NCBI GenBank assembly: GCA_043819495.1
Contig: JBDRET010000024.1
Coordinates: 7,177 to 71,176, forward strand
DNA: 64,000 nucleotides
DNA from: Candidatus Woesearchaeota archaeon
Lineage (GTDB): Archaea; Nanobdellota; Nanobdellia; Woesearchaeales; UBA11576
Direction: 5' to 3'
In this document: one piece after another, positions 2,189-55,184 of the stretch
How positions within the stretch are numbered: position 1 is the stretch's first letter
How the letters are laid out: each line of letters opens with the position of its first letter
The notes under the pieces: model-generated
The model's input: the letters and a program-made list of their open reading frames with translations, nothing else
The model's database searches: none
What the model was told of the DNA's origin: nothing
Translations under genes and position numbers: made by a program

Positions 2189-2761
2189 ATGGCGACATTT
2201 TTAGATATAGGACTTGCAGAACATTTCGCGATAATATTCCCTATACTTCTAGTCTTTGTGATAGTATTTGCACTACTTGAGAAATCTAAGATATTGGGAG
2301 ACAATAAAGGGTTACATTCGCTGATTGCATTATCTATAGCCATAATGATGATCTTTGTCCCGGGTCTTGTCCAGGTCGTGGTCATAATGGCACCTTGGTT
2401 TGTTATACTGTTTTTGTTGGTTACATTCTTCCTGCTGCTGCTCATGTCTTTTGGCACTAAGTGGGATGCGATATCAGGAGTGGCAAATGTCTGGCAGACA
2501 CCACATTGGTTTCTTCTTATCATATCCTTAATAGTATTTATCGGTGCATTAGCACAGGTATATGGTGGGGCTATGCTTCCATTCTCAGACGATGGCAGCG
2601 TGCAGGTGTCTTCAGCAGCTGATACTAACCTCACGACAGATACAGGGAATTTCAACCAGAATGTCGGCAGGGTGATATTCCATCCGAAGACTATTGGCCT
2701 GTTCTTCATGCTTATGGTAGGCGCACTCACGATAAAGCTTCTCGCATCAACTCCGAAGTGA
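2189..2761 (+). CDS. Polytopic small membrane protein, paralog 3
   Basis: Contains 'FPILLVFVIVFALLEKSKILG', the same motif, and is hydrophobic throughout. Confidence 0.55.
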   Translation: MATFLDIGLAEHFAIIFPILLVFVIVFALLEKSKILGDNKGLHSLIALSIAIMMIFVPGLVQVVVIMAPWFVILFLLVTFFLLLLMSFGTKWDAISGVANVWQTPHWFLLIISLIVFIGALAQVYGGAMLPFSDDGSVQVSSAADTNLTTDTGNFNQNVGRVIFHPKTIGLFFMLMVGALTIKLLASTPK

Positions 2762-2798: not shown

Positions 2799-2818
2799 AG
2801 AAATAGCTAAACAAATAC
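2799..2818 (+). repeat. Solo copy of the 20-mer 'agaaatagctaaacaaatac' (identical to 26025-26044)
   Basis: Exact 20/20 match in an intergenic spacer between convergent genes. Confidence 0.5.
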
Positions 2819-2851
2819 AAAATATCAATAAAATATTATTTCTATTGATAA

Positions 2852-3598
2852 TTAATGCTTAGAAGGCGCATGTGCTTTCATGCTGTCAGTTATCCTTGAG
2901 AGCTCTGAGATATTCTCTATGAAGCCTGGCAGCACCTTCTGGAACACTTTCTCCAGTGCCTTGACCTCAGTGCCCACATCACCAATGTGTTTGTCATATT
3001 CCCCTACACGCTCAAGAATGCCTTGGTGCATCTTATCAAAGTCATCCTTCATCGCCTTCATCAAGGTCTCAAGCTGTATCAATCTTGTCTCGGTCTTATC
3101 CTTCCATTCTATTATTCGGTTGATGTTCTCCATCAAGTCATTCCATTTCTCTTCGATGATCGCTTCTGCAATCTCTTCGATACGCTCATTGCTACCGCTT
3201 GAGTCCATCATCGCAAGCTCTTCACCTGCGACAGGAGCGCCTGGATAGCCTCCTTGAGCTGACATGTCTGGAGGAAGATTCGGATCTGCCATATTACCAC
3301 CTGCGCCGTTAAACGGCATCTTTGTTTGCATCCTCATATCTGCCTGGTTCATGGCATCCAAGACCTGATTTGTATTGTACCCTTGTCTCTGTAGTGCTGT
3401 CACAATCTGATTATTTGAGAGGCCCTGTTGCCTCATGCTCAGAACAGCTTCTGTAGGGGTATCTTCTGGCATATTAATCCTCGAACCAAGCAATATGTCT
3501 ATCAAGGGTAATGCTGTTTTTAAAGGTTTCGTTAGGCCCGGGTGCATCAAGCAGGTTTTTTTCGTATCTGTTTCGTATCTGTTTCGACGAAAAAACAT
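2852..3598 (-). CDS. Coiled-coil protein with an N-terminal Q/N-rich region; the likely true start is the internal Met at ~3547 or ~3472
   Basis: The C-terminal half has heptad-like charged repeats. The ORF's 5' end overlaps a hairpin/direct-repeat region (3555-3596), so an internal start is favoured. Confidence 0.45.
   Translation of the reverse strand: MFFRRNRYETDTKKTCLMHPGLTKPLKTALPLIDILLGSRINMPEDTPTEAVLSMRQQGLSNNQIVTALQRQGYNTNQVLDAMNQADMRMQTKMPFNGAGGNMADPNLPPDMSAQGGYPGAPVAGEELAMMDSSGSNERIEEIAEAIIEEKWNDLMENINRIIEWKDKTETRLIQLETLMKAMKDDFDKMHQGILERVGEYDKHIGDVGTEVKALEKVFQKVLPGFIENISELSRITDSMKAHAPSKH
3555..3596 (+). promoter_or_regulatory. Hairpin (gtttttttcg / cgacgaaaaaac) enclosing the direct repeat 2x 'tcgtatctgtt', in the divergent region between the coiled-coil gene and the DUF87 ATPase gene
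   Basis: Read directly from the sequence. Confidence 0.4.
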
Positions 3599-5920: not shown

Positions 5921-8251
5921 ATGATGTTCCATGCCAACAAACCCCTATATTCCTATGAGGTAGTGCGTGAGGGAGAGGATAATGTCCTTCGTGTAAATTA
6001 CGAAGGTGCTCCTGTGGTCCCTTCTATGGAGAACAATCCTATTGTCATGTCAAGGGTCTGTGATAACCTTATCGAATCAAAGAATGCGACCAAGATAATA
6101 TTCACCCAGAAACGGGAATATGAGTATGATTATAATCAGACACTCCTGATCAAGGAGATTGCAGAGGTGTACGACAAGCTGTCCAAGCAGAAGGACATGT
6201 TCACCCTGACTGCACTTCAGGTGGATGAATCATCCAAGAGATTCGCCAATAGATGGTATACTGAGGTACAGACACTCATCTTCCAGACATTGAGGGCTGA
6301 CCCGATAGGGATGTATGTTGACCTCAAGAGAAAAGCGAGAGAAGAGAAGGTCAACTTCATCAAGATTGTCGACGAGAAGATAAAGCCCGGCATAAGCAAT
6401 TACATCAAGCTGCTGACATATGTCATAAATGTCATGGAGAAGACACGTCTGATTACCGTCGCAAAACCTTTCCTTTCCGGTTACCATATAGGTGACAGGG
6501 AGATCTACAGTAATTTCTTCCATCCCATGATAAAGCCTGACTTCATGTGGACAAAGCTCATGGCGAATTATCCTCCTGATGGGGAAGAGATGGACAGTTA
6601 CGTAATAGGTGATGATACAGAGATAGTGATATTCAGGTTGCAGGATTCTGTACAGTACATATATCACATGACCCCTCCAGAATTCAAGCTATCAGAGGAT
6701 AAATATGAACTTCTTGACATGGCACGTAACATCCTTGCCGAGCACAAGCCGAGCAAGCAGGAATTCACTGATCCTGAAAGGATGAGAGAGGTCTTCACCA
6801 ATGTAGGCAAGGATCTCATGGCTGAGCTTGTCGCATACAAGAATATGGAGATGTCACAGAGTGAGATAGAGAAGCTTGCCAATATTCTCGTCAGGTATAC
6901 CGTAGGTTTCGGTCTGGTCGAGGTCCTGCTTCAGGATGATAAGATCCAGGACATATCAGTGAACAGCCCGCAAGGCAGGCTCCCTATATTTGTCGTCCAT
7001 GCGGATGCTGCTGATTGTGTCACTAATGTCATCCCGACGAAGACAGAGGCAGAGAGCTGGGCAACAAAACTAAGGATGATATCAGGCAGACCTCTTGATG
7101 AGGCAAATGTAATCCTTGATACTGAACTTGAGATGCCGGGAGCATCCATAAGGGTGTCTACGATAACCCAGCCGCTCAACCCATCAGGACTCGCATTCTC
7201 GTTCAGAAGGCATAGGGACAAGCCATGGACGCTGCCGCTTTTCATGAAATACAAGATGATCAGCCCTCTTGCAGCAGGACTTCTCAGTTTTCTTGTGGAT
7301 GGTACAAGGAGCATGATGGTGTGCGGTACCAGGTCAAGCGGAAAGTCTGCTTTCTTATCTTCCCTTCTCATAGAGATCATGCGTAGATACAGGATAATAA
7401 CTGTAGAGGATACTCTGGAGCTTCCTACAACATCAATGCGTCGACTGGGATTCAACGTGCAGCCGATGAAGGTAGCGAGCGCACTTGCAAAAGGGAGCAG
7501 TGAGATGAGTGCAGAAGACGGCATAAGGAGCACGTTAAGGTTGGGTGACAGCGCGTTGATAGTCGGTGAAGTAAGGAGCAGTGAAGCCAAAGCACTATAC
7601 GAAGCTATGCGAGTAGGTGCTGCAGCTAACGTCGTTGCAGGAACTATCCATGCTGACAGCCCTTTTGGTCTTTTTGATAGGGTAGTCAATGACATAGGCA
7701 TCCCGAAGACCAGCTTTAAGGCGACTGATATAGTGATAATCGCGACCCCTATAAAATCCGCAGATGGCCTTCACAGGGTCAGGAGGGTGACACAGATAAC
7801 TGAGATCCGAAAGAGCTGGCAGGAAGATCCGATGCTCGAACACGGATTTGTCGACCTGATGAAATATGATGCAAAGACAGACAGTCTTGAGCCGACCGAT
7901 GAATTGCTCGACGGTGATGCAGAGGTCCTCAAGGCAATCGCCGCAAACATACCTGACTTCGCAGGCAATTGGGATGCTGTATGGGATAATATAGTCCTGC
8001 GAGGGGAACTCAAAGAGATATTGTTGAATAAAGCGATAGAACTTGATGATATGGACATGCTAGAAGCACCATTTGTCATAAAATCCAATGATAAGTTCCA
8101 TCTGCTTGTAGAAGAGGTCAAGAAAGACACAGGGACACAGGATAACAAAGAGCTGAAGCGACGATGGGAGAACTGGTTTGACCGTGAACTGAAGAAAAGA
8201 AAACTTAATAAAGGCAAAACCGACTTCAATCCGTATGGATTGAGCTATTGA
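5921..8251 (+). CDS. Type II/IV secretion-system ATPase of the FlaI/GspE/TadA family, unusually long (776 aa) with N- and C-terminal extensions
   Basis: Walker A 'CGTRSSGKSAF' (a variant of GxTGSGKT), Asp-box/Walker B 'IITVEDTLEL', and a 'VGEVRSSEA' His-box-like region. The domain order matches the FlaI N-domain followed by the ATPase domain. Confidence 0.75.
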   Translation: MMFHANKPLYSYEVVREGEDNVLRVNYEGAPVVPSMENNPIVMSRVCDNLIESKNATKIIFTQKREYEYDYNQTLLIKEIAEVYDKLSKQKDMFTLTALQVDESSKRFANRWYTEVQTLIFQTLRADPIGMYVDLKRKAREEKVNFIKIVDEKIKPGISNYIKLLTYVINVMEKTRLITVAKPFLSGYHIGDREIYSNFFHPMIKPDFMWTKLMANYPPDGEEMDSYVIGDDTEIVIFRLQDSVQYIYHMTPPEFKLSEDKYELLDMARNILAEHKPSKQEFTDPERMREVFTNVGKDLMAELVAYKNMEMSQSEIEKLANILVRYTVGFGLVEVLLQDDKIQDISVNSPQGRLPIFVVHADAADCVTNVIPTKTEAESWATKLRMISGRPLDEANVILDTELEMPGASIRVSTITQPLNPSGLAFSFRRHRDKPWTLPLFMKYKMISPLAAGLLSFLVDGTRSMMVCGTRSSGKSAFLSSLLIEIMRRYRIITVEDTLELPTTSMRRLGFNVQPMKVASALAKGSSEMSAEDGIRSTLRLGDSALIVGEVRSSEAKALYEAMRVGAAANVVAGTIHADSPFGLFDRVVNDIGIPKTSFKATDIVIIATPIKSADGLHRVRRVTQITEIRKSWQEDPMLEHGFVDLMKYDAKTDSLEPTDELLDGDAEVLKAIAANIPDFAGNWDAVWDNIVLRGELKEILLNKAIELDDMDMLEAPFVIKSNDKFHLLVEEVKKDTGTQDNKELKRRWENWFDRELKKRKLNKGKTDFNPYGLSY

Positions 8252-8674: not shown

Positions 8675-10309
8675 TCACTGCCGTACCATTCCCTTTACAT
8701 TATATACTTGAATAGGATTAGATTTTCCTTTCACTCTTATCGGTTCAAGCTCTTCACACTTGACGAGCTTCTTGACTTCTGCATGCGTGGTCGCGGTAAT
8801 GAGGATCTCATCTGCTTTTGCAGCTCCGCAAAGACGTGCGGCGACATTGACGCTGTTTCCTATGACTGTGTAATCCATGCGCTGCCTTGCGCCGACATTA
8901 CCTACGATCATCTCACCAGTATTGATGCCTATTCCGATATTTATGTCGATGCCATACTTCTTCTTGAACTTCTTGGATAATATCTTCTGTGCTGCCTGCA
9001 TCTCGACGGCAGTCTTCACTGCCTTGAGCGCATGCGCTTCGGTGCGGACTGGAGCGCCGAATATCGCCATTATCTCGTCACCTACAAACTTGTCTAGTGT
9101 CCCGTTGTTCTGGTGTATTATCTGCAACATCGTCTCGAAGTGCTCGTTGAGTATCTCTATTGTGTGTTCTGGTGCGAGCTGCTCTGACCATGCTGTGAAG
9201 TCACGCAGGTCTGAGAACAGTACGCTCATCTCACGTTTCTCTGTCCTGAGATAATTCTCTTCAGGGTTTGCAAGTATCTGCTTCATTACTTCAGGACTGA
9301 CGTAGCTCTGGAAGGCAGTCTTTATCTCGGTCTTTGCAAGATCCTCAAATACTGCTGAGTCTGCCTGCTTTGCGATAGCATTGAGAAGATTCTTGTCTAT
9401 CTTCGTGAACCCGTCAGATGAGCTTGAGTTTATCACTCCGAAGACACCCATAGTATCATCATTGAGCATGAATGGTGTACAGATAGCTGAGTCTATATCC
9501 TTGTTGACATTCTTGAACTCTGTAAGCTCTCCCTTGTTCAGTGTCGTACGTGCAGTATCATATAATGCATTTGAATTGTTATGGACAAATGTGGATGACT
9601 TGAGCTTGCCTGCGGTCTTGAGCTCCGTGGTGTTCATCTTCCTATTATTTATCATGAAGAATGCGAGCTTTGCATCTATGACATCAGTTATCTCCTGCAA
9701 TATCGCTTCCATCATCGTGTCAAAGTCTTTTATCGTGTCTCTGATCCGGTCTATGGCGTATATCGTCGAGAGCTCTTTGTCCTTCTCACTCAGTTCCCTG
9801 CGGCTCTTTGCGTGCTCGACAGCTACAGCAGTAAATTTACATATCATCCTGAAAAGTATGAGGTCCTTCTTCTTGAACAGTCTGCGGCTCTTGTTCATTA
9901 TCATGAAGACGCCGATCGGTTCTGATCCGTACATCAATGGCAATGCCATCACATTCTGTATCCTGCATCGTCTCATGCGCTTGTGCATACGGGTGTCATT
10001 CACTATTATCTGCTTCCCTGTCTTGACCAGGTTGTCACATATATCCCTGACCAATGCCTGATCCTCAAGCTGTTCGGAAGTGTTGGTCGCACCATACTCG
10101 AATGGGTTCATGTTGTCTTTGTTGTATAAGATTATGAATCCCAATTCTACTCCAATTGTCTTGACTGTCAGAAGAAGTATCTCCTTAAGGAGCTGGTAGA
10201 ATTCCTTTGTATTGGTCTCTATGGTCACCAATTCGCTCAATATGTATGAACGGGTATTCTGGGACCTGATCTTAGCTGCCAGTCTTTTGATCTTATCAGA
10301 GGATTTCAT
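8675..10309 (-). CDS. Class III adenylate/guanylate cyclase with two N-terminal GAF-like domains
   Basis: Cyclase homology domain motifs are present: 'VLFSDLRDFT', 'KFVGDEIMAIFGAP', 'INTGEMIVGNVG' and 'DYTVIGNSVNVAARL'. The N-terminal ~350 aa looks like tandem GAF sensor domains. Confidence 0.7.
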   Translation of the reverse strand: MKSSDKIKRLAAKIRSQNTRSYILSELVTIETNTKEFYQLLKEILLLTVKTIGVELGFIILYNKDNMNPFEYGATNTSEQLEDQALVRDICDNLVKTGKQIIVNDTRMHKRMRRCRIQNVMALPLMYGSEPIGVFMIMNKSRRLFKKKDLILFRMICKFTAVAVEHAKSRRELSEKDKELSTIYAIDRIRDTIKDFDTMMEAILQEITDVIDAKLAFFMINNRKMNTTELKTAGKLKSSTFVHNNSNALYDTARTTLNKGELTEFKNVNKDIDSAICTPFMLNDDTMGVFGVINSSSSDGFTKIDKNLLNAIAKQADSAVFEDLAKTEIKTAFQSYVSPEVMKQILANPEENYLRTEKREMSVLFSDLRDFTAWSEQLAPEHTIEILNEHFETMLQIIHQNNGTLDKFVGDEIMAIFGAPVRTEAHALKAVKTAVEMQAAQKILSKKFKKKYGIDINIGIGINTGEMIVGNVGARQRMDYTVIGNSVNVAARLCGAAKADEILITATTHAEVKKLVKCEELEPIRVKGKSNPIQVYNVKGMVRQ

Positions 10310-10699: not shown

Positions 10700-11386
10700 G
10701 TGTTTGAAATGCCAGCCCCCACAAACAATGTTTTCAATAGTGTTGCAGCACAGTATCTGCAGAAAGACAGCGCATTCTATTCTAATGTGTCAAAAGCACA
10801 TGATATCTTATGTAAGGTCAGGAATCAGTCAGATGGACACGGCATAACATTTGTAGTGAGACGTAATGAGTATATGCCAAGTCTTGACCGTCGCCTCAGG
10901 AACGCAAAGCAGTATAACGAAGAATCACACCTGCTTGATGATCAGGATATAGTCGAAGTAGTTGCAGACCACCGTGAGGTCGACCTTGCGACCATAGTCA
11001 ATAATGAGGGTCAGATAACCGCTGCGAGCGTATACCTGCCTGCGGATGATCTCATGTATCAGGATAAGTATGGGATCCAATGCGACATCTCAACCTTCCT
11101 CGGTTATGCTCCGGATGAGGATGGTGCAGGTGGACGGGCGATAAGCTCTCTCTGTGCGTCAGATATGTTCAATGGTGACGTCGCCATATTGACACTTGGC
11201 GAGACATCGCCTACTGGGAAGAAAGGTGAGATAAACCTGTATTTCCAAGGTGATAGGCTGTATAACAGTAAAGGGAGAGCTGTACGTTGGGACCTTGCAG
11301 ATCCTTTGAGGTTACCTAAGACGCGGAGACAGTTGTACAGTATTCCTTACTTGAGTGAGAGCACCATTGCGCTCACTCCGTTTTAG
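10700..11386 (+). CDS. Hypothetical protein with a divergent DisA_N/DAC-like (diadenylate cyclase) domain
   Basis: Aligns by eye to the CdaA DAC core. 'IVNNEGQITAASVYLPADD' matches 'IIQGxxIAAAASYLPLSD', and 'GGRAISSLCASDMFNGDVAILTLGETSPTG' matches '[29 protein letters not shown]'. The catalytic DGA and RHR motifs are replaced by DLA and GGRA. Confidence 0.35.
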   Translation: MFEMPAPTNNVFNSVAAQYLQKDSAFYSNVSKAHDILCKVRNQSDGHGITFVVRRNEYMPSLDRRLRNAKQYNEESHLLDDQDIVEVVADHREVDLATIVNNEGQITAASVYLPADDLMYQDKYGIQCDISTFLGYAPDEDGAGGRAISSLCASDMFNGDVAILTLGETSPTGKKGEINLYFQGDRLYNSKGRAVRWDLADPLRLPKTRRQLYSIPYLSESTIALTPF

Positions 11387-11462
11387 GCATCGTCACTTTA
11401 TGCTGAACTGCATCAGCTTTTTCTTCTATTTTTTTTCAGCTCGCTAGGCAGTGGTGCTCTCA
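11356..11462 (+). repeat. Hairpin element family 1, copy A (107 nt)
   Basis: Terminal inverted repeat tgagagcacca / tggtgctctca, with internal 'ttgcgctcac ... aactgca ... cagctcgctaggcag'. It overlaps the last codons of the 10700-11386 ORF. Confidence 0.6.
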
Positions 11463-18796: not shown

Positions 18797-18873
18797 TGCA
18801 TAGAGGAGTAGAGAGGGTTTTTTAAGGGTTGCGGCAGAGTAATATTTAAAAAGCAGAGGATATATAGCATCAT

Positions 18874-19302
18874 ATGCAAATAAAGTCCAAATCAATATTC
18901 ATCATTGTTTTAACATTGCTGCTGATTCTTATTATGGGTTGCAGCGTACCTGTGTGGAAATTAGAGTCAAAGCAGACAAGAAAGGTCTTGAATATCTATG
19001 TGGACGGCGGCTCAGGGGACGATGTCGGAGCCATACTCATATCAAAGATACGTATTGATTCCGGAAAGATAAACCTGACTATACTCGCTGAAGACCCACA
19101 GAACGACGTGCTCAAAGATGCGCTCAATGATATTGAATCCAAGGGCAACTTGTCTCTGACAGCAGAGAACATGGAAGGCGGCAATCTGGTGATGTTTGCG
19201 AAGCCTGTTGCTCCAGATGACCCTAATTATATATATGCTGTCAGCGAATCGCTCAGGATCGATTACGGTATCAGATCAGTGGTCGGAAAGGAAACTATTT
19301 AA
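18874..19302 (+). CDS. Small secreted protein / putative lipoprotein
   Basis: Signal peptide with a lipobox-like 'LILIMGC' sequence. Confidence 0.4.
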   Translation: MQIKSKSIFIIVLTLLLILIMGCSVPVWKLESKQTRKVLNIYVDGGSGDDVGAILISKIRIDSGKINLTILAEDPQNDVLKDALNDIESKGNLSLTAENMEGGNLVMFAKPVAPDDPNYIYAVSESLRIDYGIRSVVGKETI

Positions 19303-19355
19303 ACACTAAAAGCGGAGTGTCTTAGAGTTTCATAATATATCAAAAGAGGCACGAT

Positions 19356-21218
19356 ATGTCAAGATACGCAGGCATAACTATCATTCTTGTATTTCTGCTC
19401 TGTTTAAGTTCTGTATCTTTGACTGCTCTTGCACCAATACCTGATGTCGGACCGAGCGGATGCGTGCCTGCACCAGGGATGCCGTGCGGTTCGACAAGCG
19501 GAAGCAGCGGAACAAAGACAACAACCCAGCAGGCGACGCAGACAAAAACAACAACACCGCAGACTGGCGGATATACTGCAACAAAGCCGGATGAAGGAGA
19601 GAGGACAACCGATACAGGAATACCGCAGCATGTCGAGATAGCCATCAAGAATTATAAGAATCCTGGATGGGGAATTGTATACGATGTCTACACAGGAGAA
19701 CTTCCAGATGATCAAGCATGCCCTCCTGTCGATATAATGGATTGTTATAACCAATGCGGTGATCGTAAATATGGTGATTGTTTAGATCCCTGCGAGGAAT
19801 GGTATGAGCCTTTAGCAAAACAGTGGCAAGAGTGCTATGCTGCTTGGAACGCCAGACACAACCAGTTGATGGAAGCATATCTTATGCAAGAAAATCAGGG
19901 CTATGTGTGCTATGGGGATGATTGCTCTGATGAAGAAGAGATTGATGTTCCAGACGATCTAAAAGACTCTGTCTCAGATAACAAACGTGGCGCGTCATCT
20001 CCCATGGCTCAGCTTGTAGCGCAAATAATACTGCTGACAGATGAAGCAATGACTCCGGGGCAGACAAGAGACTTCACAGCACTTCTTGATCTGCTGAACA
20101 AGGCAGCGACCTCAAAGACAATGAGTGATGCAGAGCTTGAACATTTCATAGGTTCTCTGCAGAAATACCTTGCAGGAAGGATACCTTTTGTTACGGGTAC
20201 TGAAGATTACACTGCACTGACTTCTGCGATGGTCTCGCTTGGCGTGGCAATAGATGAGGCCAAAGCAAGAGGCAATACGCAACTTGTCAACAGGCTGCAG
20301 TCAGACTTTGAAAAAGCAGTGAATGACGTCATAATCACGATAGAAAAAAACAAGCTGGAGAAGGGCAGTCAACTTACAAAAGAACAGATAGGATGGGCCG
20401 ACAATGTGATAGATGGCATGACTCAGGGAGCGAAACAGATGAGGAACCTTGGCCAGAATGCCAATGCCGACAAGGCCCAGAAGCTGGCAAGTGATCTCAA
20501 AGGGGCTTTAGATACATCAGTCGGTAATGTGATGGATACCACAGAAGTGCAGCTTGATCTTGATGACTCAAAACAAAGGACAATCATAGAAGAGATGGAA
20601 CGCAAGCAGTCAAAACCGAGCGTGAACAAGAAGTACATAAACCAGAAACTCGATGAGGCCCGCGTAAGGGTGCAGGAGATGCTCGAAGCAAATTACAGGA
20701 AAACGATGACACTCGAGGAGTTTGAAGCAAAGAATGCTGATTACCAGGCAAGCAGGGATGCAGCAGTGAACATATTCAAGGAGGTCCTGAGCCAGGACAA
20801 AGGTAACACAGAAGCCAATTTTGCGCTTGGGACAATATACAGGAAAGAAAACAGGAAAGAAGACGCAAAAGAACTATATGAACGCGCAATACTGGGAGCA
20901 AGCCCTCAAGACAGGCAAATACTGATCAATGGAATGAAAGATCCTGAACTTACAGCACGGGTCCTGGAAGGAGCAGGATTGGCACAACTCCCAAATAAGG
21001 GCAAAGTCATGAATCACGTAAGGACTGATACAATAAATGAGAATGCCTATGCAGACAAAGCAAAAGAGGAACTGGCATACTTCACCACAAAGATAAGCAA
21101 AGGCCTTGCTATACTTGGAGACAATCCTTTCAGTAATGCCTATGGCACAGTCAAAGGACTGTTTGTAGAGCAGAGAGATAACGCGAATGTAAATGAGGTA
21201 GCGTATGGCACGCCATAA
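19356..21218 (+). CDS. Large secreted protein: signal peptide, Thr/Gln-rich linker, Cys-rich module, then a long helical/TPR-like region
   Basis: Signal peptide 'ITIILVFLLCLSSVSLTALA', then 'TKTTTQQATQTKTTTPQTGGYTATKP', then 10 Cys in ~120 aa, then a TPR-like 'NFALGTIYRKENRKEDAKELYERAILG'. Confidence 0.5.
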   Translation: MSRYAGITIILVFLLCLSSVSLTALAPIPDVGPSGCVPAPGMPCGSTSGSSGTKTTTQQATQTKTTTPQTGGYTATKPDEGERTTDTGIPQHVEIAIKNYKNPGWGIVYDVYTGELPDDQACPPVDIMDCYNQCGDRKYGDCLDPCEEWYEPLAKQWQECYAAWNARHNQLMEAYLMQENQGYVCYGDDCSDEEEIDVPDDLKDSVSDNKRGASSPMAQLVAQIILLTDEAMTPGQTRDFTALLDLLNKAATSKTMSDAELEHFIGSLQKYLAGRIPFVTGTEDYTALTSAMVSLGVAIDEAKARGNTQLVNRLQSDFEKAVNDVIITIEKNKLEKGSQLTKEQIGWADNVIDGMTQGAKQMRNLGQNANADKAQKLASDLKGALDTSVGNVMDTTEVQLDLDDSKQRTIIEEMERKQSKPSVNKKYINQKLDEARVRVQEMLEANYRKTMTLEEFEAKNADYQASRDAAVNIFKEVLSQDKGNTEANFALGTIYRKENRKEDAKELYERAILGASPQDRQILINGMKDPELTARVLEGAGLAQLPNKGKVMNHVRTDTINENAYADKAKEELAYFTTKISKGLAILGDNPFSNAYGTVKGLFVEQRDNANVNEVAYGTP

Positions 21219-21726
21219 AACTGAATCGCACAAGCAGGAACAGCATAAGCAGGAATTGCATAAGAAGGAACAGCATAAGCAGGAATCGCATGAGCAGGAA
21301 ATTGCTCCTGAGAAGCCCAAGCGCAAGATACATTTGGGGTTGCTCATATTAGGGCTATTTATCATATTCGTAGGGTGCACAATCATCGGTTATTTCGGTG
21401 GAACAGTCAAACTAGGCACATGCCAGAACGAGATTTGCTTCATCAATGCATCAGACCAGTGCCTGGTGGCAGACCTCAGATTGCAGGAAGACTTTGGCAT
21501 AGTGAAATATCACTCAGAAAACTGCACATTCCAGAAGACCATAGAACAGGTGACAGACCCTGATTCACAGGACCTGAAGCCTGTGCTTGAAGGCAAGACC
21601 ATGAACTGCACATATGAGAAAGACGATTTTGACGCGCAATGGGTATACTCACTCACTTCAGGAATTGAGAAGTGCGAGGGGGAACTCGTGACAACTATCG
21701 CGCAGCTGATTCTTCTAGCTGAATAG
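21205..21726 (+). CDS. Membrane-anchored Cys-containing extracytoplasmic protein with N-terminal HKQE repeats
   Basis: N-terminal tandem 'QHKQE(L/S)HK' repeats (15-nt DNA repeats at ~21225-21300), then a TM helix, then a Cys-rich domain. It overlaps the upstream gene by 14 nt. Confidence 0.5.
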   Translation: MARHKTESHKQEQHKQELHKKEQHKQESHEQEIAPEKPKRKIHLGLLILGLFIIFVGCTIIGYFGGTVKLGTCQNEICFINASDQCLVADLRLQEDFGIVKYHSENCTFQKTIEQVTDPDSQDLKPVLEGKTMNCTYEKDDFDAQWVYSLTSGIEKCEGELVTTIAQLILLAE

Positions 21727-21867
21727 GGGTAAAGTAAGTTAATGGTGTTAAGTGGGATGCAGCGCTCGCACAGCTTCTTTAATCGCTTCTATCTGCCCAA
21801 CTGCAATACTTACCGCTTATGTCCCCACAGCTCGCTAGGCGGCATCCCACTTAATCTTATTTTACCC
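21727..21867 (+). repeat. Hairpin element family 1, copy B (141 nt), flanked by 9-bp direct repeats
   Basis: Long imperfect terminal IR 'gggtaaagtaagttaa..ttaagtgggatgc / gcatcccacttaatcttattttaccc'. Core 'agcgctcgc ... aactgca ... cagctcgctaggcgg'. Direct repeat 'ctgaatagg' at 21719-21727 and 21867-21875. Confidence 0.6.
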
Positions 21868-21912
21868 TGAATAGGCAAAATATAAAAACCACAAGTCTTG
21901 TGCTTGTCTTTT

Positions 21913-22416
21913 ATGAAATCACTTGATGTAATAACCAAACTACGTGAACTGCAAAAGTTCAAGGAATGGAAGGAGAAGAATAAAGAATCGAATCTTGTCC
22001 ATCTGTTCATAATGATTGAACCAGGGAAGGATATCAAGTATGACATCGGTTTCTTTGATCTGAAGAAAAGTCTTATGACATCATTCCTTGTTGATGATAC
22101 AGTGAAAGACGCAGAAGTGACGGAGACCAAGGAAATATTCACGCAAGACAACCAGAAGATAACTCCACTTGAGCTGGAGAAGGTGAAGATAGGATTCGAG
22201 GAGGCTTTTGAGACTTCACGTACTCTGCAGAAAGAGAAGTACAGGCAGCACGAACCGCTCAAAAAGATAGTGATACTGCAGAATCTTCCAGATGGACAGG
22301 TCTGGAACATAACTTACATCACACAGACATTCCAGACACTGAACATGAAGATTGATGCAGAGACAGGACTTGTCGTCGAGGATTCACTGCACCAGATAAT
22401 CAGCTTCGATAAGTGA
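21913..22416 (+). CDS. Hypothetical protein
   Basis: Open frame with plausible composition. No recognisable motifs. Confidence 0.4.
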   Translation: MKSLDVITKLRELQKFKEWKEKNKESNLVHLFIMIEPGKDIKYDIGFFDLKKSLMTSFLVDDTVKDAEVTETKEIFTQDNQKITPLELEKVKIGFEEAFETSRTLQKEKYRQHEPLKKIVILQNLPDGQVWNITYITQTFQTLNMKIDAETGLVVEDSLHQIISFDK

Positions 22417-24034: not shown

Positions 24035-25801
24035 GTGCGATACAAGGGGTGTGACAGTTTGACAGAAGATATAGTGAACGATATTCTAGATTCAGAGGGA
24101 AATCTCAAACCGGGATTCAGTGGTATAGGTAAGCTAAGAGGCAAGACAGATTATACAAAAGATGAGGAGACAGTACTAAAGCATTTCTTCACCAATACGC
24201 ACTCAAATGTGTACTGCGCTACAGATAACATGCCAGGAGAGCTATGGGCATTGATAATGGGCCAGTATGCACGGAGCAGCATGACCGGAAGAGATAGGCT
24301 GCTCAAGCTGTTCACTGACATGGAAGAGAAAGGTGAAGCGATATCAGTATCCGAGCTAGCAGAGATGATACGATCTGGACGCGATGTCGCAGGAGCACTT
24401 CAAGCATACCTCAATAAAGCAGGGAATTTCATCGAGATATATGGTGTGAAGTACGGCCATGCATCACTACGAGATTCAGGTGTAATCAGAATATGTTTCG
24501 AAGGGGTGAGCCAGAGAGCCACCAAGTTCCTTGAGAGCGCCAGAGAGGGGGCATATCAGGAACAGTCTACCCGTGCCATCCCTTATGAGATGGAGAATCT
24601 TGGCGTCCCATATGAGATCCGTGACACCAAGTATGAGATCATCATACATGAGCTGGATGAGAAGCTCATCGAACTATACAATAAGATATACAATAAGCTG
24701 ATAGTATACCTGCCTAGTAAGTTTGCTCATCTCAGGGCCAAGGCCGATGAGAAGCTGGCTTCTGAGCTTGGCCGTGATGACGTGACGATAACTGACAGGG
24801 AGTGGAGCAGTATCATAGCTGCAAAGGCATTCGATGTCGCGAGATACCTGCTGCCTCAGAACATGACAACATCTTTAGGCATCACATTGAACACCCGAAG
24901 GTTCCAGGACAAGCTCACTGAATGGCAGTCCTCAGACATCATGGAGATGCAGGTGCTTGGAAAGGTGGCTCAGGTCGAGTCCATGAAGATAAGCCCTACG
25001 CTCATGAAGTACGGCAACAAGAGCCCGTATCATGTGAAGATACCTTCTGCACTTAAGGCGCTCAATAAGAAATTTGTAGTCAACAACAAGGCCTGTGCAG
25101 CTTTCCCTTACACACATTATGATGTCAGCTCAAAGATGATATCTGCCCCTGACGACCTGCAGGAACTGGTCCTTGCAAGCATACTGCTCAATGGTTCAGA
25201 TGGCAGTGTGAGCATGGATGAATTCAAGCAGATTGTAGGGAACATGTCATTTGATGAGAAACGTGAGGTCGCTGAGAGCGTAGCGTCAGATAAACCGTCT
25301 CATGACATATTCTCCAAGACGATGGAATGCGGATCAGTCATCTTTGAGAGAGTCTATGATATAGGTGCATTCAGGGACCTTCAGAGACAGAGAGGGGATA
25401 GGCAGCAATTCAACAGATATTCAGTCATAGGTTACAACATGCCTAAAGAGGTCGCAGAGATCGGTTTAAAGGCTGAGTTTGTCACTCTTATGAATGAAGT
25501 CAAGAATGTATATGATATGATGTGTGAAGAGGGTATCGCTGCGGCAGAGTATGTGCCTGTGATGGCAAATGTCCTGCGACACGTCGTCACAAAAGATCCT
25601 GTCCAGTGTTTCTATGAGGCGAAACTTAGAGCGCAGCCTGCAGGCATCGATTCTTACAGATCAATAGCTCAGCAGGAGATAACCCAACTTCTTGATGTGA
25701 TGCCTGTCTTCAAAGGTCTGGTACCCTACGATGCAGAATATTATAATCTTGGCAGGCTCGAAGAGACAGTCAATGGCAAGCTGAGGAAGCATAAGAAATA
25801 A
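24035..25801 (+). CDS. ThyX-like (flavin-dependent thymidylate synthase family) protein, tandem duplication of the ThyX domain with non-canonical RHR motifs
   Basis: First domain: 'GHASLRDSGVIRICFEG...FLESAREGAYQEQSTRA' aligns to ThyX 'GHETPFEHIVFTFHV...WFRHRIASYNELSGRY', and 'ARYLLPQNMTTSLGITLNTRRFQDKL' matches ThyX 'ARxvLPxNxxTxxxxTxNxRxLxxFL'. Second domain: 'AFRDLQRQRGDRQQFNRYS' and 'YVPVMANVLRHVVTKDPVQCFYEAKLR'. Confidence 0.45.
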   Translation: MRYKGCDSLTEDIVNDILDSEGNLKPGFSGIGKLRGKTDYTKDEETVLKHFFTNTHSNVYCATDNMPGELWALIMGQYARSSMTGRDRLLKLFTDMEEKGEAISVSELAEMIRSGRDVAGALQAYLNKAGNFIEIYGVKYGHASLRDSGVIRICFEGVSQRATKFLESAREGAYQEQSTRAIPYEMENLGVPYEIRDTKYEIIIHELDEKLIELYNKIYNKLIVYLPSKFAHLRAKADEKLASELGRDDVTITDREWSSIIAAKAFDVARYLLPQNMTTSLGITLNTRRFQDKLTEWQSSDIMEMQVLGKVAQVESMKISPTLMKYGNKSPYHVKIPSALKALNKKFVVNNKACAAFPYTHYDVSSKMISAPDDLQELVLASILLNGSDGSVSMDEFKQIVGNMSFDEKREVAESVASDKPSHDIFSKTMECGSVIFERVYDIGAFRDLQRQRGDRQQFNRYSVIGYNMPKEVAEIGLKAEFVTLMNEVKNVYDMMCEEGIAAAEYVPVMANVLRHVVTKDPVQCFYEAKLRAQPAGIDSYRSIAQQEITQLLDVMPVFKGLVPYDAEYYNLGRLEETVNGKLRKHKK

Positions 25802-25811
25802 TATTTTTATC

Positions 25812-26044
25812 GTATTTGTTTAGCCCTATACTCTTTGGCAGTGCCGCGCTGCTATGTATGCGTACCGGGAATAATGCGCAATCAGTCTTGCAGTGGCTAA
25901 AGCCAATCAGTCATCAATATGGCTACGCCCCGGTCTTCGTATCTTGACTCTACCGACGCTAAGCAGCGCCACACTACGTGCGGCTGGTCTTCGAGCATAG
26001 CTCAAAGGAGCGGCGGCACTGCCAGAAATAGCTAAACAAATACT
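25812..26044 (+). repeat. GC-rich 233-bp element bounded by 13-bp perfect inverted repeats (gtatttgtttagc / gctaaacaaatac) with extended imperfect inner IRs; candidate structured ncRNA or MITE
   Basis: Inner IR 'ctttggcagtgccgc' / 'gcggcactgccag'. The interior is GC-rich in an AT-rich genome and carries direct 'ggtcttcg' repeats. The right end's 20-mer 'agaaatagctaaacaaatac' recurs at 2799-2818. Confidence 0.5.
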
Positions 26045-26075
26045 TGTTATCTATTTTTTCTTCAGATATATATTA

Positions 26076-26891
26076 TCAACTGAGCGCTAATCTGGTCCTC
26101 ACATTTTTCTGTATCTGGTCTTTTCTCAGCCACCATACCCCCAGATAAGCGAATGGAGTGTCAAGCAGGGCGCAGAATATCTTGAATATCCAGAACGGAA
26201 CGATAAGAGATATGACAAATATTGCGTCCCACATAGGGGCGGTCTTGTAAAATGCCACAAACATGAACACTACACTGTCAATCAGTTGGCTCACTACCGT
26301 CGATGCGTTGTTACGCAGCCATAAGTGCTTACCTTCTGTCTTTCGTTTCCAGAACTCGAATGCCCACAGGTCATGCACCTGGGCGATGACAAATGCGAGT
26401 ATGCTTGCGATCGTCATGCGGATGGTCGCCTTGAATATCATAGAGAAACTGTTGTTGTCTATCGATCGTTCAGAAGCAGGGACTGCTATTGCGATAGATG
26501 TTATGACTATCATCAGAAGAAGCGCTATCACCCCTGTGGTGATGAACTCCATCACTTTCTTTTTCCCATGCACCTCAGCGATAATGTCAGTTATCAGGAA
26601 CATCAGAGGGACTGTGAGGATGCCTACAGAGACACTTATAGTATTGAAGAAGCCTAGTGATATCTCCCGTCCACCCATGGTGAGGAGGAAAGTCTTGAGA
26701 GCATATATTATCGGGAAGAACAGGATGTTGAGCGGTGTAGAAATGAATGAAGGCAGGTCAAACTGAGTTATCTTGCTGCCCAGCACATTCGCCAATATCA
26801 ATGAAGCGACAAATAGGCCTAATAATATGTTGGTCTTCTCTTTCATGTCAAACCGCATGTATCTAACCCCCGAATCAAGCAGTTTTGACAT
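26076..26891 (-). CDS. YhhQ/DUF165-family queuosine/archaeosine precursor (preQ0) transporter
   Basis: 7-TM protein with 'FLITDIIAEVHGKKK', 'ILANVLGSK' and 'FVIAQVHDLWAFEF', resembling YhhQ/QueT-family motifs. Confidence 0.55.
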   Translation of the reverse strand: MSKLLDSGVRYMRFDMKEKTNILLGLFVASLILANVLGSKITQFDLPSFISTPLNILFFPIIYALKTFLLTMGGREISLGFFNTISVSVGILTVPLMFLITDIIAEVHGKKKVMEFITTGVIALLLMIVITSIAIAVPASERSIDNNSFSMIFKATIRMTIASILAFVIAQVHDLWAFEFWKRKTEGKHLWLRNNASTVVSQLIDSVVFMFVAFYKTAPMWDAIFVISLIVPFWIFKIFCALLDTPFAYLGVWWLRKDQIQKNVRTRLALS

Positions 26892-29985: not shown

Positions 29986-30032
29986 CTTGTGTCAAAGGTC
30001 CAGTACAGAATATTTATACCTTTCTATTAGGT

Positions 30033-30096
30033 ATCTATCAAGATATCAGGCATCTATCAAGATATCAGGCATCTATCAAGGCATCTATCATGCAGG
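30033..30096 (+). repeat. Tandem direct repeats 'atctatcaagatatcaggc' (two full and two partial units) in the divergent glyA / kinase-deaminase promoter region
   Basis: Each 19-bp unit contains a 'gatatc' palindrome. The repeats lie between the divergent starts at 29985(-) and 30188(+). Confidence 0.55.
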
Positions 30097-33246: not shown

Positions 33247-33255
33247 CTTTTACAC

Positions 33256-33359
33256 GTCAGCACCGCAGCGCTCGCTTTGCGTATTCTTTTGAATATTCAT
33301 GCACAACTGCATCTTTAATCGTATATATCATTGTCAGCTCGCTAGGCGGCGGTGCTGAC
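33256..33359 (+). repeat. Hairpin element family 1, copy C (104 nt)
   Basis: Terminal IR gtcagcaccgc / gcggtgctgac. Core 'agcgctcgc ... aactgca..ctttaatcg ... cagctcgctaggcgg'. Confidence 0.6.
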
Positions 33360-33392
33360 TTTGTAAGTGGAACTTGCGTTGCTGTTTGACTA

Positions 33393-38612: not shown

Positions 38613-39695
38613 TTAAAAACTAAGCAAGCTTTTAAAAGTTTGGTTTTTCGGGGTGTACTTCGGCTTGTTCAGTGACTGCATCTCTTTTACAATATCAAGA
38701 TGCTCTATGCCTATCTTACCAACATAAAGGTCATTGATAGAACCTCCTTCTGCAAGATACTTCTTCACCTTAAGATACCCATCTATGTAGACATAGTCTT
38801 TCTGGCAGCCTCCAGGTCTTGATGTATCTGCGATGCCGCGTTTGACCCTTGTGGTTATCCTGAATGCTGTCGATGGCTGGAAGAACTGAAGAAGATACTT
38901 ATATATCTCTGAGAAGCTCTTAGTGAGTGCCATCTGGACAGCGACTGCTCTTGCGGCATAATTCTTGATATTCTCATTATTCAACAGTCCGAATCGCTCT
39001 TCATTGACTACTGCAAGTCCCTCTTCTGTAGCGAGATAATCAGGGAATCCGTGGAAGAACATCATGAATGGCTGTTCCCTGCCGTTCTCAGCGCGAAGGA
39101 CATGAGTACCTATCTCGTGTATCACCAGCCTTTTGATGAAATTGTCTGAGAACATGAAATTATCTTTGATGAATATCTTTTTTTTTGATACCAACACTGC
39201 AGCGCTTGCGCTCATGTTCTTTGTATCGACATCATAACCGAAACCGTAATGGTTGACTTCTGCCTGTATCCTATGCTTAGCAGTGATTGGATCTATGGTC
39301 TTTGCTTCTTTCTCGCATTCAAGTGTGAGAAGGTTTGCGGAATGATCAAGGGCTTCATTTGAGGGAGTCCCATACACTTTACGAGAGAACACTGTGAATT
39401 TCTTTGATCCTCTATTGTTCAACATCTCGCACTTGTCTATGAAAAGGTTACGTTTCCTGCTCAAGAGCTCTCCAAAAGCAGAATCATGATCATCTATAGA
39501 ATTCAGCCTGGACTGTACTGCATCATAATCAAAATCAAGCTCAGGGTATATGAAATACGGGTCATAATCAGGATCCGCAAGCACTTTAATCTTTTCAGAT
39601 TCGTTGTTTATCGGATTTATCTCGAAAAAGCTGACTGGATTGATCACTTGCTGTAGACTTGCATCTATGTTCTTGAGTTTGAAAAAATCTGCCAT
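38613..39695 (-). CDS. DUF1704-family putative zinc metallopeptidase (HExxH plus QEGLA-type motif), paralog 1
   Basis: 'HEIGTH' and 'TEEGLAVV'. Confidence 0.5.
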   Translation of the reverse strand: MADFFKLKNIDASLQQVINPVSFFEINPINNESEKIKVLADPDYDPYFIYPELDFDYDAVQSRLNSIDDHDSAFGELLSRKRNLFIDKCEMLNNRGSKKFTVFSRKVYGTPSNEALDHSANLLTLECEKEAKTIDPITAKHRIQAEVNHYGFGYDVDTKNMSASAAVLVSKKKIFIKDNFMFSDNFIKRLVIHEIGTHVLRAENGREQPFMMFFHGFPDYLATEEGLAVVNEERFGLLNNENIKNYAARAVAVQMALTKSFSEIYKYLLQFFQPSTAFRITTRVKRGIADTSRPGGCQKDYVYIDGYLKVKKYLAEGGSINDLYVGKIGIEHLDIVKEMQSLNKPKYTPKNQTFKSLLSF

Positions 39696-43045: not shown

Positions 43046-43186
43046 ATCTGTGAAGTCTTTCTCTACTCCAACGCAGCGCTTGTTTTGCATATCATCTCTA
43101 TTCAGTCAGCCCTACTGCGATATCTATCGCTCAAGTCATCGTAAACTCGCTAGGCAGCGTTGGCGTCTGTATCGACTTCACAGATT
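43046..43186 (+). repeat. Hairpin element family 1, copy D (141 nt)
   Basis: Terminal IR atctgtgaagtc / gacttcacagat plus an inner ccaacgc / gcgttgg pair. Core 'agcgct ... ctactgcga ... aactcgctaggcag'. Confidence 0.55.
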
Positions 43187-48254: not shown

Positions 48255-51200
48255 ATGGTACTTGAGAAACTTGGAACTTCACTCAGAGACACACTCCACA
48301 AGATAAGTAAAGCAGTCTTTGTAGATGAAAAACTGGTCAATGAGCTGGTCAAGGATATCCAGCGGGCCCTTCTCCAGTCAGATGTCAATGTCAAGATGGT
48401 ATTTGAGCTCTCCAAGAAGATAAAGGAGAGGCTGATGAATGATGATGCACCTCCAGGCCTGACAAAGAAAGAATTCCTCATAAAGATAGTGTATGAAGAG
48501 CTTGTGAACTTCCTTGGGGCTGAAGCATCAACTATAGAGATAACGAAGAAACCAACTAAGATCATGATGGTAGGACTTTTTGGTCATGGAAAATGTGTAC
48601 ATAAGGACAGCAACATACTTCTTTTTGACGGTACAACTGTCGGGGTGCAGCAACTATACGACTCCTACAGGTGCAATGGGGAGGTCGACATAGAGGATGG
48701 ATGTATCATACCTCTTGATGCAGAGCTTTCTGTCCCTTCGATGAACACAAAAAGCCTGAAGATCGAGAAAAAGAGAGTGACTCATCTCTGGAAACTGAAA
48801 TCAAAAGACCTGATGGCTGTATCGCTCGATATGGGAAATGACTTCAACGTCAAGACCACCTGTGAGCACCCGTTCTTTGTACTGAAAGATGGCTTGGTGG
48901 AGCAAAGAAGGGCAGATGAATTAAGGAGAGGGGATTATGTAGCAATACCTGCGAAGGTCACTACAGAATCTGGCAGCATCAACTTTGAGGACTCTCTGAA
49001 GAGACTCAACCTCAACGTGAAGATATCTGATGATAAGACCTTAAGAACACTCAAGAAAAAGATAATAGCAGAACATGGAACACTGATGCGCGCAGCTTAC
49101 TCACTCCCCCATAAACGTAATTATGCTGTATTTACGAGTTCCTTAAAGAAAGGAGAGATCCCAATCCAGCTATGTGGCCTCGGAACATCTGATGCTGTGC
49201 ACTTAAAGCTGCAGAACTCCCAAGATTATATCGATTTTCCCACAAGATCAACACCTGAAATGGCAGAATTCTTGGGCTACATCATAGGCGATGGTCATCT
49301 TTCCCATAATAGTGTCAACATATCAAATAAGGACCCTGAAATAATCGAGAGACTGAAAACATTGTCGAAAGACCTCTTCGGCAGGGAGCTGAAGCTTACC
49401 CCCTGCAAAAGGTCCAAAGGATTGTATGATCTCAGGATAAACTCTAAGACCCTTGTCACGCTCATACATGGGCTGTTCGGCATACCGATAGGAAAGAAAG
49501 GGACTGGACTGGAAGTCCCTCAACTCGTACAACTGTCTTCGCAAGATGTAATCTCCAGATTCCTGAGGGCTTATTTCGATTGCGATGGGTATTTCTGCCG
49601 TACCCAAAGGCAGATTGAAGCAGTATCTGAAAGCAGAGTGCTGCTAAGACAGATACAGCATATGCTGCTAAGGTTCGGGATTGTCGCGAAGATGATCAAT
49701 AAGAGAACCGATGGGAAGGACTATTCCAGGCTAATGGTGCAGGCGAGGGATACTGTCATATTCGGTGAGAGGATAGGCGCATCAATCGCAAGGAAAAGGG
49801 AAGCGCTTGAGAACCATGTTATCATGACCATCAAGCAAGGTGATGGAAAGAAAGACATGATACCGGTCGGCAGCCTCCTGAGAGAATTAAGGGAAATGTC
49901 CGGTTTCTCTTTAAGCCAGATACAGGATGCTGTAAGTTCATATGGCCTGTACGAGAAGAAAGGCATGATATCCAGGACACAATTACGCAATGTCGTCTGT
50001 TTCTATGAGCGTGGCGAGAGCGGCAATTTCCGTAAGTTGATAGGCCTGGTGGAGAACTCGCAAAAAGACAAGCTCAGCGAACAGCTACGGATAAGCCAAC
50101 CATTGGTAAACGCGCTTGTGGGAGAGCTGAGGAACAGAAACATGATCGCAGAAGTCACGAACTCACCTACCAGACTTGTCCTTACAGAAAAAGGGAGTAA
50201 GTATTTTGATGGCATGAAACGATCCTCGGACAGACTGTTCGGGATCCTGAGAACCCTTGCGTATGCTGATGTCTGCTGGGCCAAAGTCAAAGACGTCTCT
50301 AAAGTCAAGAATGACCATCCATATGTGTATGATCTCACTGTCGAGGACAGCCATAACTTCATCGCTGATGGCATTGTGGTGCATAATACGACGACTGCCG
50401 CTAAGTTAGCTAAATACTACCAGAAACGTGGCAATAAATTGGCATTGATATCCACAGATACCTGGAGGCCGGCAGCATTTGAGCAATTGAGACAGTTAGG
50501 TGCGCAGATAAACGTCCCGGTATTCGGAAATCCTAAAGCAAAGAGTCCTGTAGCGATATACAAAGAATTCGAAGACAAGCTTGGCGAGTTTGATCTTGTC
50601 ATCATAGATACTGCAGGAAGGGATGCATTGTCTGATGAGCTCATCAGGGAACTGAATGATATCAATAATGCTGTGCAGGCAGATGAGAAACTTCTTGTCA
50701 TAGGCGGTGATGTCGGGCAGGCTGCGGAAAGGCAGGCACAGACATTCCACGATACCTGTAATGTGACTGGTGTGATAATAACAAAGCTTGAAGGTACAGC
50801 AAAAGGTGGCGGTGCACTGATAGCATGCTCCGTGACCGGCGCAAAAGTAAAGTTCATAGGAGTAGGAGAGAAGATTGATGACCTTGAAGTGTACTCTCCT
50901 GAAAGGTTCGTCGGAAAGATGCTTGGCATGGGCGATCTTGAAGGCCTCCTTGAGAAAGCACGTGAAGCGATAACAGAAGAAGATGCACAGGACCTCGGTA
51001 AGAAACTCCTGAAAGGTGATTTTAACCTCCTTGACCTTTATGAGCAGATGCAGGCGATGAAGAAGATGGGGCCTTTGGGCAAGGTGATGGACATGATACC
51101 TGGCTTTGGTCAGATCAAGCTGCCAAAGGATGCATTGAAAGTCCAAGAAGAGAAGATCAAGAAATGGAAATTCATACTCGACAGCTGCACCAAAGAGGAG

Positions 51201-55182: not shown

Positions 55183-55184
55183 TT

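Follow-up and report, generated by a model that had tools for sequence, protein, structure and literature searches.

A probable miniature inverted-repeat transposable element between convergent genes of a Woesearchaeota archaeon, and a related family of hairpin elements

Results

A GC-rich element occupies the spacer between thyX and a convergent transporter gene

Within the 64,000-nucleotide window (the whole stretch of Woesearchaeota DNA analysed here), thyX (24035-25801, +) converges on a gene for a Vut_1/YhhQ-type transporter (26076-26891, -), beyond which lie FolC-like and SHMT genes. The stop codons of thyX and the transporter gene are both intact, and a GC-rich element fills the spacer between them (Table 1). 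ThyX in the window and in all relatives is ~580-600 aa long, more than twice the usual length, with its Thy1 domain matched in two stretches.

The element is bounded by terminal inverted repeats, gtatttgtttagc (25812-25824) and gctaaacaaatac (26031-26043), which are reverse complements at 13 of 13 positions. Because the complementarity is perfect over exactly these intervals, the element is 232 bp long and ends at 26043 rather than 26044: the perfect 13-bp ends given in a preliminary description of this DNA stand, and its length of 233 bp was one base too long. A second inverted repeat of 11 bp, set 12 nt (left) and 7 nt (right) inside the first, pairs ggcagtgccgc at 25837-25847 with its complement at 26013-26023, as had been proposed. 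Immediately outside the 13-bp ends we found an 8-bp direct repeat, TTTTTATC/TTGTTATC, matching at 7 of 8 positions, that had gone unseen. GC content is 56% in the core, 51% in the whole element and 44% in the window; the interior is GC-rich as described, and calling the surrounding genome AT-rich was an overstatement. The interior carries short internal direct repeats (CAATCAGTC and GGTCTTCG, each present twice). The longest open reading frame in the element is 43 aa, and a six-frame peptide search returned no protein homologues or mis-called reading frames. Excising the element together with one copy of the duplication in silico leaves a T-rich convergent spacer of ~34 bp, TATTTTTATCTATTTTTTCTTCAGATATATATTA, which is typical of this compact genome.

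Table 1. Coordinates of the element, of its copies and of the related hairpins. Positions are those of the window unless a locus is named.
Feature	Position	Strand	Remarks
Left putative target-site duplication TTTTTATC	25804-25811		7/8 against 26044-26051; L018 homologues have perfect 8-bp duplications
Left terminal inverted repeat GTATTTGTTTAGC	25812-25824	+	Identical 13-mer bounds the L018, L008 and L024 elements
Left linker, T-rich, 12 nt, cctatactcttt	25825-25836	+	T-rich linker of 7-12 nt in other copies (alignment A6)
Left subterminal inverted repeat GGCAGTGCCGC (ggcagtgccgc)	25837-25847	+	Closing helix, second tier; cores of all copies start (G/A)GCAG(C/T)(G/A)C
GC-rich interior	25848-26012		No protein-coding potential; 56% GC over 25838-26018
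Right subterminal inverted repeat GCGGCACTGCC (gcggcactgcc)	26013-26023	-	Pairs with 25837-25847, 11 bp
Right linker AGAAATA (TATTTCT on - strand)	26024-26030	-	7-mer also present after the terminal repeat at L018 12052 and in the solo copy at 2799
Right terminal inverted repeat GCTAAACAAATAC	26031-26043	-	Perfect reverse complement of left repeat
Right putative target-site duplication TTGTTATC	26044-26051		7/8 against 25804-25811
Whole element	25812-26043		Flanks TTTTTATC (25804-25811) and TTGTTATC (26044-26051), 7/8
Solo truncated right end	2799-2826	+	20-nt linker and terminal repeat, then AT-rich 8-mer AAAATATC; expected GGCAG... core absent
Element copy, thyX-folC spacer	L018 12052-12223		Flanks AAAATCTT/AAAATCTT, 8/8
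Element copy, between CBS-domain gene and 186-aa gene	L018 3055-3226		Flanks GATTATTT/GATTATTT, 8/8
~107-nt hairpin	11356-11462	+	Window copy
~107-nt hairpin	21748-21854	+	Window copy
~107-nt hairpin	33255-33360	+	Window copy
~107-nt hairpin	43062-43168	+	Window copy; outer inverted repeat 43046-43185
~107-nt hairpin	L013 5244-5351		Covariance model from the four window copies
~107-nt hairpin	L008 16-120		Covariance model from the four window copies
~107-nt hairpin	L008 11256-11362		Covariance model from the four window copies
~107-nt hairpin	L015 18460-18564		Covariance model from the four window copies
~107-nt hairpin	L022 about 6130-6235	-	Identified by eye

Several other features of the window lie outside this spacer. 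An intein containing a LAGLIDADG homing-endonuclease domain splits the SRP54 gene (48255-51437, +; product 1060 aa). This DPANN archaeon also encodes two MATCAP-family paralogues (PF08014, microtubule-associated tyrosine carboxypeptidase), at 38613-39695 (-) and 54115-55275 (-). Three tandem 19-bp repeats, TATYAGGYATCTATCAAGA (30025-30081), occupy the divergent spacer between the SHMT and dCMP deaminase genes and may constitute an operator or iteron-like site.

The folding signal resides in the inverted ends

Relative to shuffled sequences, the whole element folds with z = -5.0 (RNA, +), -5.5 (RNA, -) and -5.1 (DNA), values that support the prediction of a long hairpin in RNA or single-stranded DNA, or of a cruciform in duplex DNA. 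When both tiers of inverted repeat are removed, the remaining 159-nt interior (25849-26007) gives z = -0.66 (+) and -0.75 (-). The decisive result is this last one: the trimmed interior is indistinguishable in folding from shuffled sequence, which leaves the two-tier inverted ends as the source of the entire signal. The self-complementarity had earlier been taken to suggest a stable RNA or a cruciform; the hairpin or cruciform is upheld at z of about -5, and an SRP-like or RNase P-like RNA gene is not, given the interior z of about -0.7 and the lack of any Rfam match.

In DPANN assemblies, the RNAs of SRP and RNase P are frequently difficult to locate. Like the element, archaeal SRP and RNase P RNAs are 200-300 nt long, richer in GC than their genome and paired between their 5' and 3' ends; the element differs from them in having no Rfam match, no GNAR-capped helix 8, no P4 motif and no conservation at its locus. 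Across the whole window no Rfam 15 family reached its gathering score. Under permissive settings (E up to 10) the 701-nt locus returned noise only, the best being snoCD11 with 17 bits (gathering score, 60); five related loci gave no Rfam match, and ARAGORN found no tRNA or tmRNA in the window. Archaeal SRP RNA (RF01857) has no covariance-model match at the element: an AAGCAGC segment is present, with no GNAR hairpin before it, and we agree with the preliminary description, which had considered SRP RNA and could not support it. RNase P RNA of archaeal types A, M and T has no match even under permissive settings, and there is no P4 motif.

Further candidates were considered and rejected. A box C/D sRNA or K-turn is suggested by UGAUGA and two CUGA motifs on the - strand, whose flanking stem is unpaired and whose spacing (0 and 25 nt) is wrong. 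An integron attC site was considered as well: the outer arms read GTATTTG...CAAATAC, and R boxes of the required polarity are missing. On inspection, the bulges in the closing helix do not fit a bulge-helix-bulge processing motif. A BRE/TATA promoter in the AGAAATAATATTTT flank was rejected in view of its varying spacing to the 13-mer; this flank is AT-rich target DNA.

The element might nevertheless be the gene of a new structured non-coding RNA, or else an RNA module of a 3'-UTR, whose inverted ends would be the closing helix of a functional RNA. A GC-rich core in a genome of 44% GC and the folding of the whole element speak for such an RNA, but its interior folds no better than shuffled sequence, Rfam offers no match, no BRE/TATA of this genome's type (consensus RAAAG-nTTTAWATA) is present, and the closest relative lacks the element at this locus. 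Nor do mismatches in the element's helices single out one strand: around CACACUACGUGCGG and CUUCGAGC/GCUCAAAG the pairing is better on the - strand, whereas the + strand suits the linker helix better. We consider a functional RNA of this kind improbable.

A second, truncated end lies 23 kb away

The 20-mer agaaatagctaaacaaatac (also given as AGAAATAGCTAAACAAATAC), composed of the right linker and terminal repeat at 26024-26043, recurs exactly at 2799-2818, in the convergent spacer between open reading frames at 2189-2761 (+) and 2852-3598 (-). This recurrence, which the preliminary description had pointed out, exceeds chance: with as many as 3 mismatches permitted, 100 shuffles yielded no match at all. 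For the 13-mer by itself, with up to 2 mismatches, the 3 occurrences in the window do not differ significantly from the 1.4 expected. The solo end motif is likewise real, in that linker and terminal repeat are followed directly by an AT-rich 8-mer, AAAATATC, with the core missing. This 8-mer resembles the other target sites (TTTTTATC, AAATAATC, AAAATCTT), and the 20-mer at 2799-2818 is best read as the truncated, decayed right end of a second copy. The window holds one full copy and one solo end in 64 kb.

The two 20-mers lie in direct orientation 23 kb apart, an arrangement that could also be produced by an integrated element with the 20-mers as its attachment sites and the GC-rich core as the RNA gene it had targeted. 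The 23 kb between them, however, consist of core genes (CCA-adding enzyme, MoxR/VWA, wyosine radical-SAM enzyme, thymidylate kinase and ThyX) that are syntenic with relatives lacking the repeats, and the interval contains no integrase. To attachment sites we assign a negligible probability.

Identical ends bound divergent elements with their own 8-bp duplications

Among the fetched loci from other genomes, the exact 13-mer always occurs as inverted pairs around a GC-rich core. It bounds four further elements on three other contigs: L018 3055-3226, L018 12052-12223, L008 2932 and L024 9950-10130. L018, a further Woesearchaeota contig, encodes a ThyX with 69% identity to that of the window, and its two copies of the element are flanked by perfect 8-bp duplications (Table 1). 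Given the AT-rich composition of these spacers, we estimate a probability of ~1e-4 that two 8-mers at set positions agree completely; two perfect duplications together with one of 7/8 cannot be due to chance. The L008 copy (2932-2986) is an internally deleted, degenerate mini copy in the spacer after a 195-aa reading frame, and the flanking 8-mers of the degenerate copies in L008 and L024 match at 5 of 8 positions. Copies lie in the ThyX spacer (window and L018), in the spacer after a CBS-domain gene (L018), in that after the 195-aa reading frame (L008) and, as a solo end, at 2799.

In alignment A6 the copies have in common a T-rich linker, a core start of (G/A)GCAGYRC, and short boxes towards either end (UAUGCG..CG on the left, GCRUAGCU on the right). 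The subterminal inverted repeat is GC-rich, and its sequence differs between copies while remaining complementary within each. The interior of the window copy is largely unrelated to those of the L018 copies, with neither blastn nor nhmmer detecting anything beyond the ends. These comparisons also weigh on an RNA reading: the sequence of the outer helix does not vary between genomes, and target duplications flank it, as expected of a protein-recognised transposon end and not of an RNA helix.

L024 (IMG/VR IMGVR_UViG_3300042864_000849) is a predicted viral contig of 43-44% GC that includes a GIY-YIG endonuclease gene. Its element (9950-10130), which neighbours genes for a T4-type RNA ligase, a kinase and a phosphatase, consists of the 13-bp pair enclosing 155 bp of unrelated sequence. 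It has no clean duplication and may reflect a virus-host link through a shared transposase recognition site. Viral scans with the 20-mer and the core 19-mer gave no matches, a viral scan with the inner inverted-repeat pair gave only chance matches in GC-rich phage coding regions, and blastn against phage and plasmid collections found no match. A metagenome scan with the internal repeated motif TGATGACTGATTG..AGACTGATTG, a poorly chosen pattern, returned three matches, all by chance, and the terminal-repeat sequence appears in the literature only in unrelated primers.

Relatives end the same genes without the element

The window's ThyX is identical to a protein annotated on a 126-kb contig of a Candidatus Woesearchaeota MAG, and the assembly GCA_043805635.1 is 100% identical to the window over 12 kb; these matches place the host among the DPANN archaea. 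In the closest relative available, L001 (ThyX 90% identical at the protein level), thyX, the transporter gene and folC are retained with synteny on both sides, and a different 1-kb insert with a TrmB-family gene lies between the two stop codons; because this nearest relative is rearranged at the ThyX spot, a clean empty site was not recovered. In L006, L007, L008, L013 and L022, thyX stands directly before folC with a spacer of ~35-55 bp and no element, such that the ThyX site is without a copy in six relatives (these five and L001). The thyX-folC spacers of L015 and L018 are occupied by other GC-rich hairpin elements.

These loci bear on whether the palindrome arose at this site to serve the two convergent genes as a bidirectional terminator or insulator. 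Its position exactly between two stop codons, the T-rich tracts on both sides (including T6 at 26052-26057) and the third end-motif copy, which likewise follows a stop codon, would suit a terminator. Yet relatives terminate the same genes without the element, only three copies of the 13-mer are found across the window's ~50 gene ends, and identical 13-mer pairs with their own 8-bp duplications lie at unrelated loci elsewhere, including a spacer between genes on the same strand. An origin in place as a terminator is thus very improbable.

A related hairpin family lacks terminal repeats

The window further contains four copies of a ~107-nt hairpin, and a covariance model built from them, together with inspection by eye, located others in related loci (Table 1). 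The closing helix of 13-16 bp differs in sequence between copies and keeps its complementarity; inside it lie a 5' box, GCAGCGCTCGC, a 3' box, CAGCTCGCTAGGCRGC, and an unstructured AU-rich interior with CAACTGCAT. Across eight aligned sequences, 16 of 23 pairs are changed on both sides, a level reached in none of 500 shuffles, and sliding the 3' partners destroys the covariation signal. Members of the family have no shared terminal repeats, no target duplications and no Rfam match, and one site, between DUF167 and TFIIS genes, is the same in three genomes. We rejected a + strand call based on G.U pairs: since G.U and A.C mismatches are equal, at 6 each, no strand can be assigned to the family. 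Covarying stems in these modules without terminal repeats, which the GC-rich core at thyX resembles, hint at structural constraint beyond transposition and count against reading the element as a transposon alone.

The cores of the 13-bp-ended elements resemble this family in layout and in their short boxes. The pattern CGCTARGCRGC, which was derived after the sequences had been seen, matches exactly the ~107-nt elements and the element at thyX, against 0.08 matches expected. Core-like copies without terminal repeats also occur in L018. For a functional RNA at thyX, the likeness is a point in favour: a model of the related family (the R2 model) aligns to the core on the + strand at 12.3 bits with E = 0.0044, in a search of only 451 nt, and the closing helices of that family covary as described above.

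GC-rich hairpin-closed modules are packed into the spacer after thyX and into other spacers of related Woesearchaeota (L018 11756-12585 and 3266-3400; L015 11778-12017; L001 925-1085). Some are nested or interrupted, and several include hairpins whose loops are c(UUCG)g or c(UACG)g tetraloops. In L001, a ~160-nt element is syntenic to the window copy at 21748-21854. A 3-kb segment at this place (window 18833-21925 against L001 894-1211) is missing from L001; it comprises a 142-aa reading frame, a gene for a 620-aa TPR protein and a 173-aa reading frame, with a ~107-nt hairpin element at its right edge.

Discussion

The GC-rich palindrome after thyX is very probably a miniature inverted-repeat transposable element (MITE), that is, a non-autonomous cut-and-paste DNA transposon. 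This identification follows from its terminal repeats, a duplication of constant length, its small size, its lack of coding capacity and copies at non-homologous sites that are present in some relatives and absent from others. The terminal repeats exceed 10 bp (13/13), an 8-bp duplication accompanies each full copy, the 232 bp include no transposase reading frame, and multiple copies lie at non-homologous sites with presence and absence between relatives. As read from the sequences, these copies establish both mobility between loci and genomes and a non-autonomous, cut-and-paste anatomy.

Prokaryotic MITEs (the Correia/NEMIS elements of Neisseria, Sulfolobus SM1-SM4 and those of a published census, PMC11602168) have the same build: 50-800 bp, terminal repeats of at least 10-15 bp, a short duplication, no transposase gene, an intergenic position, several diverged or truncated copies, and a hairpin when transcribed. 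The family described here departs from them in two respects, namely the very divergent interiors of copies with the same ends (unrelated in L024) and a second, GC-rich subterminal inverted repeat. Because the census counts ~105 MITEs per Mb in a Woesearchaeal genome (PMC11602168), an element of this kind is to be expected in the lineage. The family is a new one in Woesearchaeota and an ordinary kind of mobile DNA already known.

Neither the window, with ~50 reading frames compared with Pfam, nor ~250 kb of fetched loci yielded a transposase or an autonomous element with these ends. The preliminary description had held that a match to a known IS terminal repeat would speak against its structured element; this came about in spirit, as the ends act as transposon ends with duplications, and no named IS was matched. 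In the ISfinder table, IS families with 8-bp duplications include IS6, IS66, ISL3, IS256, IS1595 and ISH6, and the ends of IS66 begin with GTA, as do those of the element. With its 8-bp duplication and short terminal repeats, the element would be compatible with these families.

We propose that a DDE-type transposase encoded elsewhere would bind the 13-bp ends (GTATTTGTTTAGC) in trans. Staggered cuts of 8 bp in AT-rich, terminator-like DNA would allow insertion, and repair would leave the 8-bp direct repeat; the target here would have been the short T-rich terminator spacer between the convergent thyX and transporter genes. The self-complementarity stems from the two-tier inverted ends (13 bp, linker, 11 bp) rather than from a folded interior. 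Transcripts reading through from thyX or the transporter gene would then carry an interrupted hairpin of ~24 bp or more, which, by analogy with Correia and ERIC elements, could serve as a 3'-end stabiliser or insulator. Correia and ERIC elements in bacteria are described as stabilising or insulating transcripts.

REP/BIME, ERIC and RUP palindromes are likewise intergenic, often at the 3' ends of genes, able to form stem-loops and able to stabilise or insulate transcripts. REP elements differ in having no signature of terminal repeats with target duplication and in being mobilised by RAYT (Y1) transposases. The likeness applies more to the window's hairpin family without terminal repeats than to the MITE.

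An ordinary explanation is thereby available for a conspicuous GC-rich palindrome, which averts its annotation as an RNA gene in DPANN assemblies. The MITE family is defined by the 13-bp GTATTTGTTTAGC, an 8-bp duplication and AT-rich targets, is common to several Woesearchaeota genomes and offers a handle for tracing the active transposase. Since it occurs in several Woesearchaeota genomes and the same ends lie on a predicted viral contig, it is also a possible lineage or virus-host marker.

The covarying hairpin family without terminal repeats is the more interesting and more puzzling lead. The MITE could be a transposon 'shell' around a hairpin-closed, GC-rich module of a clade-wide Woesearchaeota superfamily, an idea that we hold to be doubtful and offer tentatively. 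If it were true, and if the modules acted as functional RNA or single-stranded DNA (in REP-like 3'-end stabilisation, insulation or protein binding), they would represent an undescribed interspersed element system in DPANN archaea, made up of regulatory or architectural elements that a transposon can disseminate.
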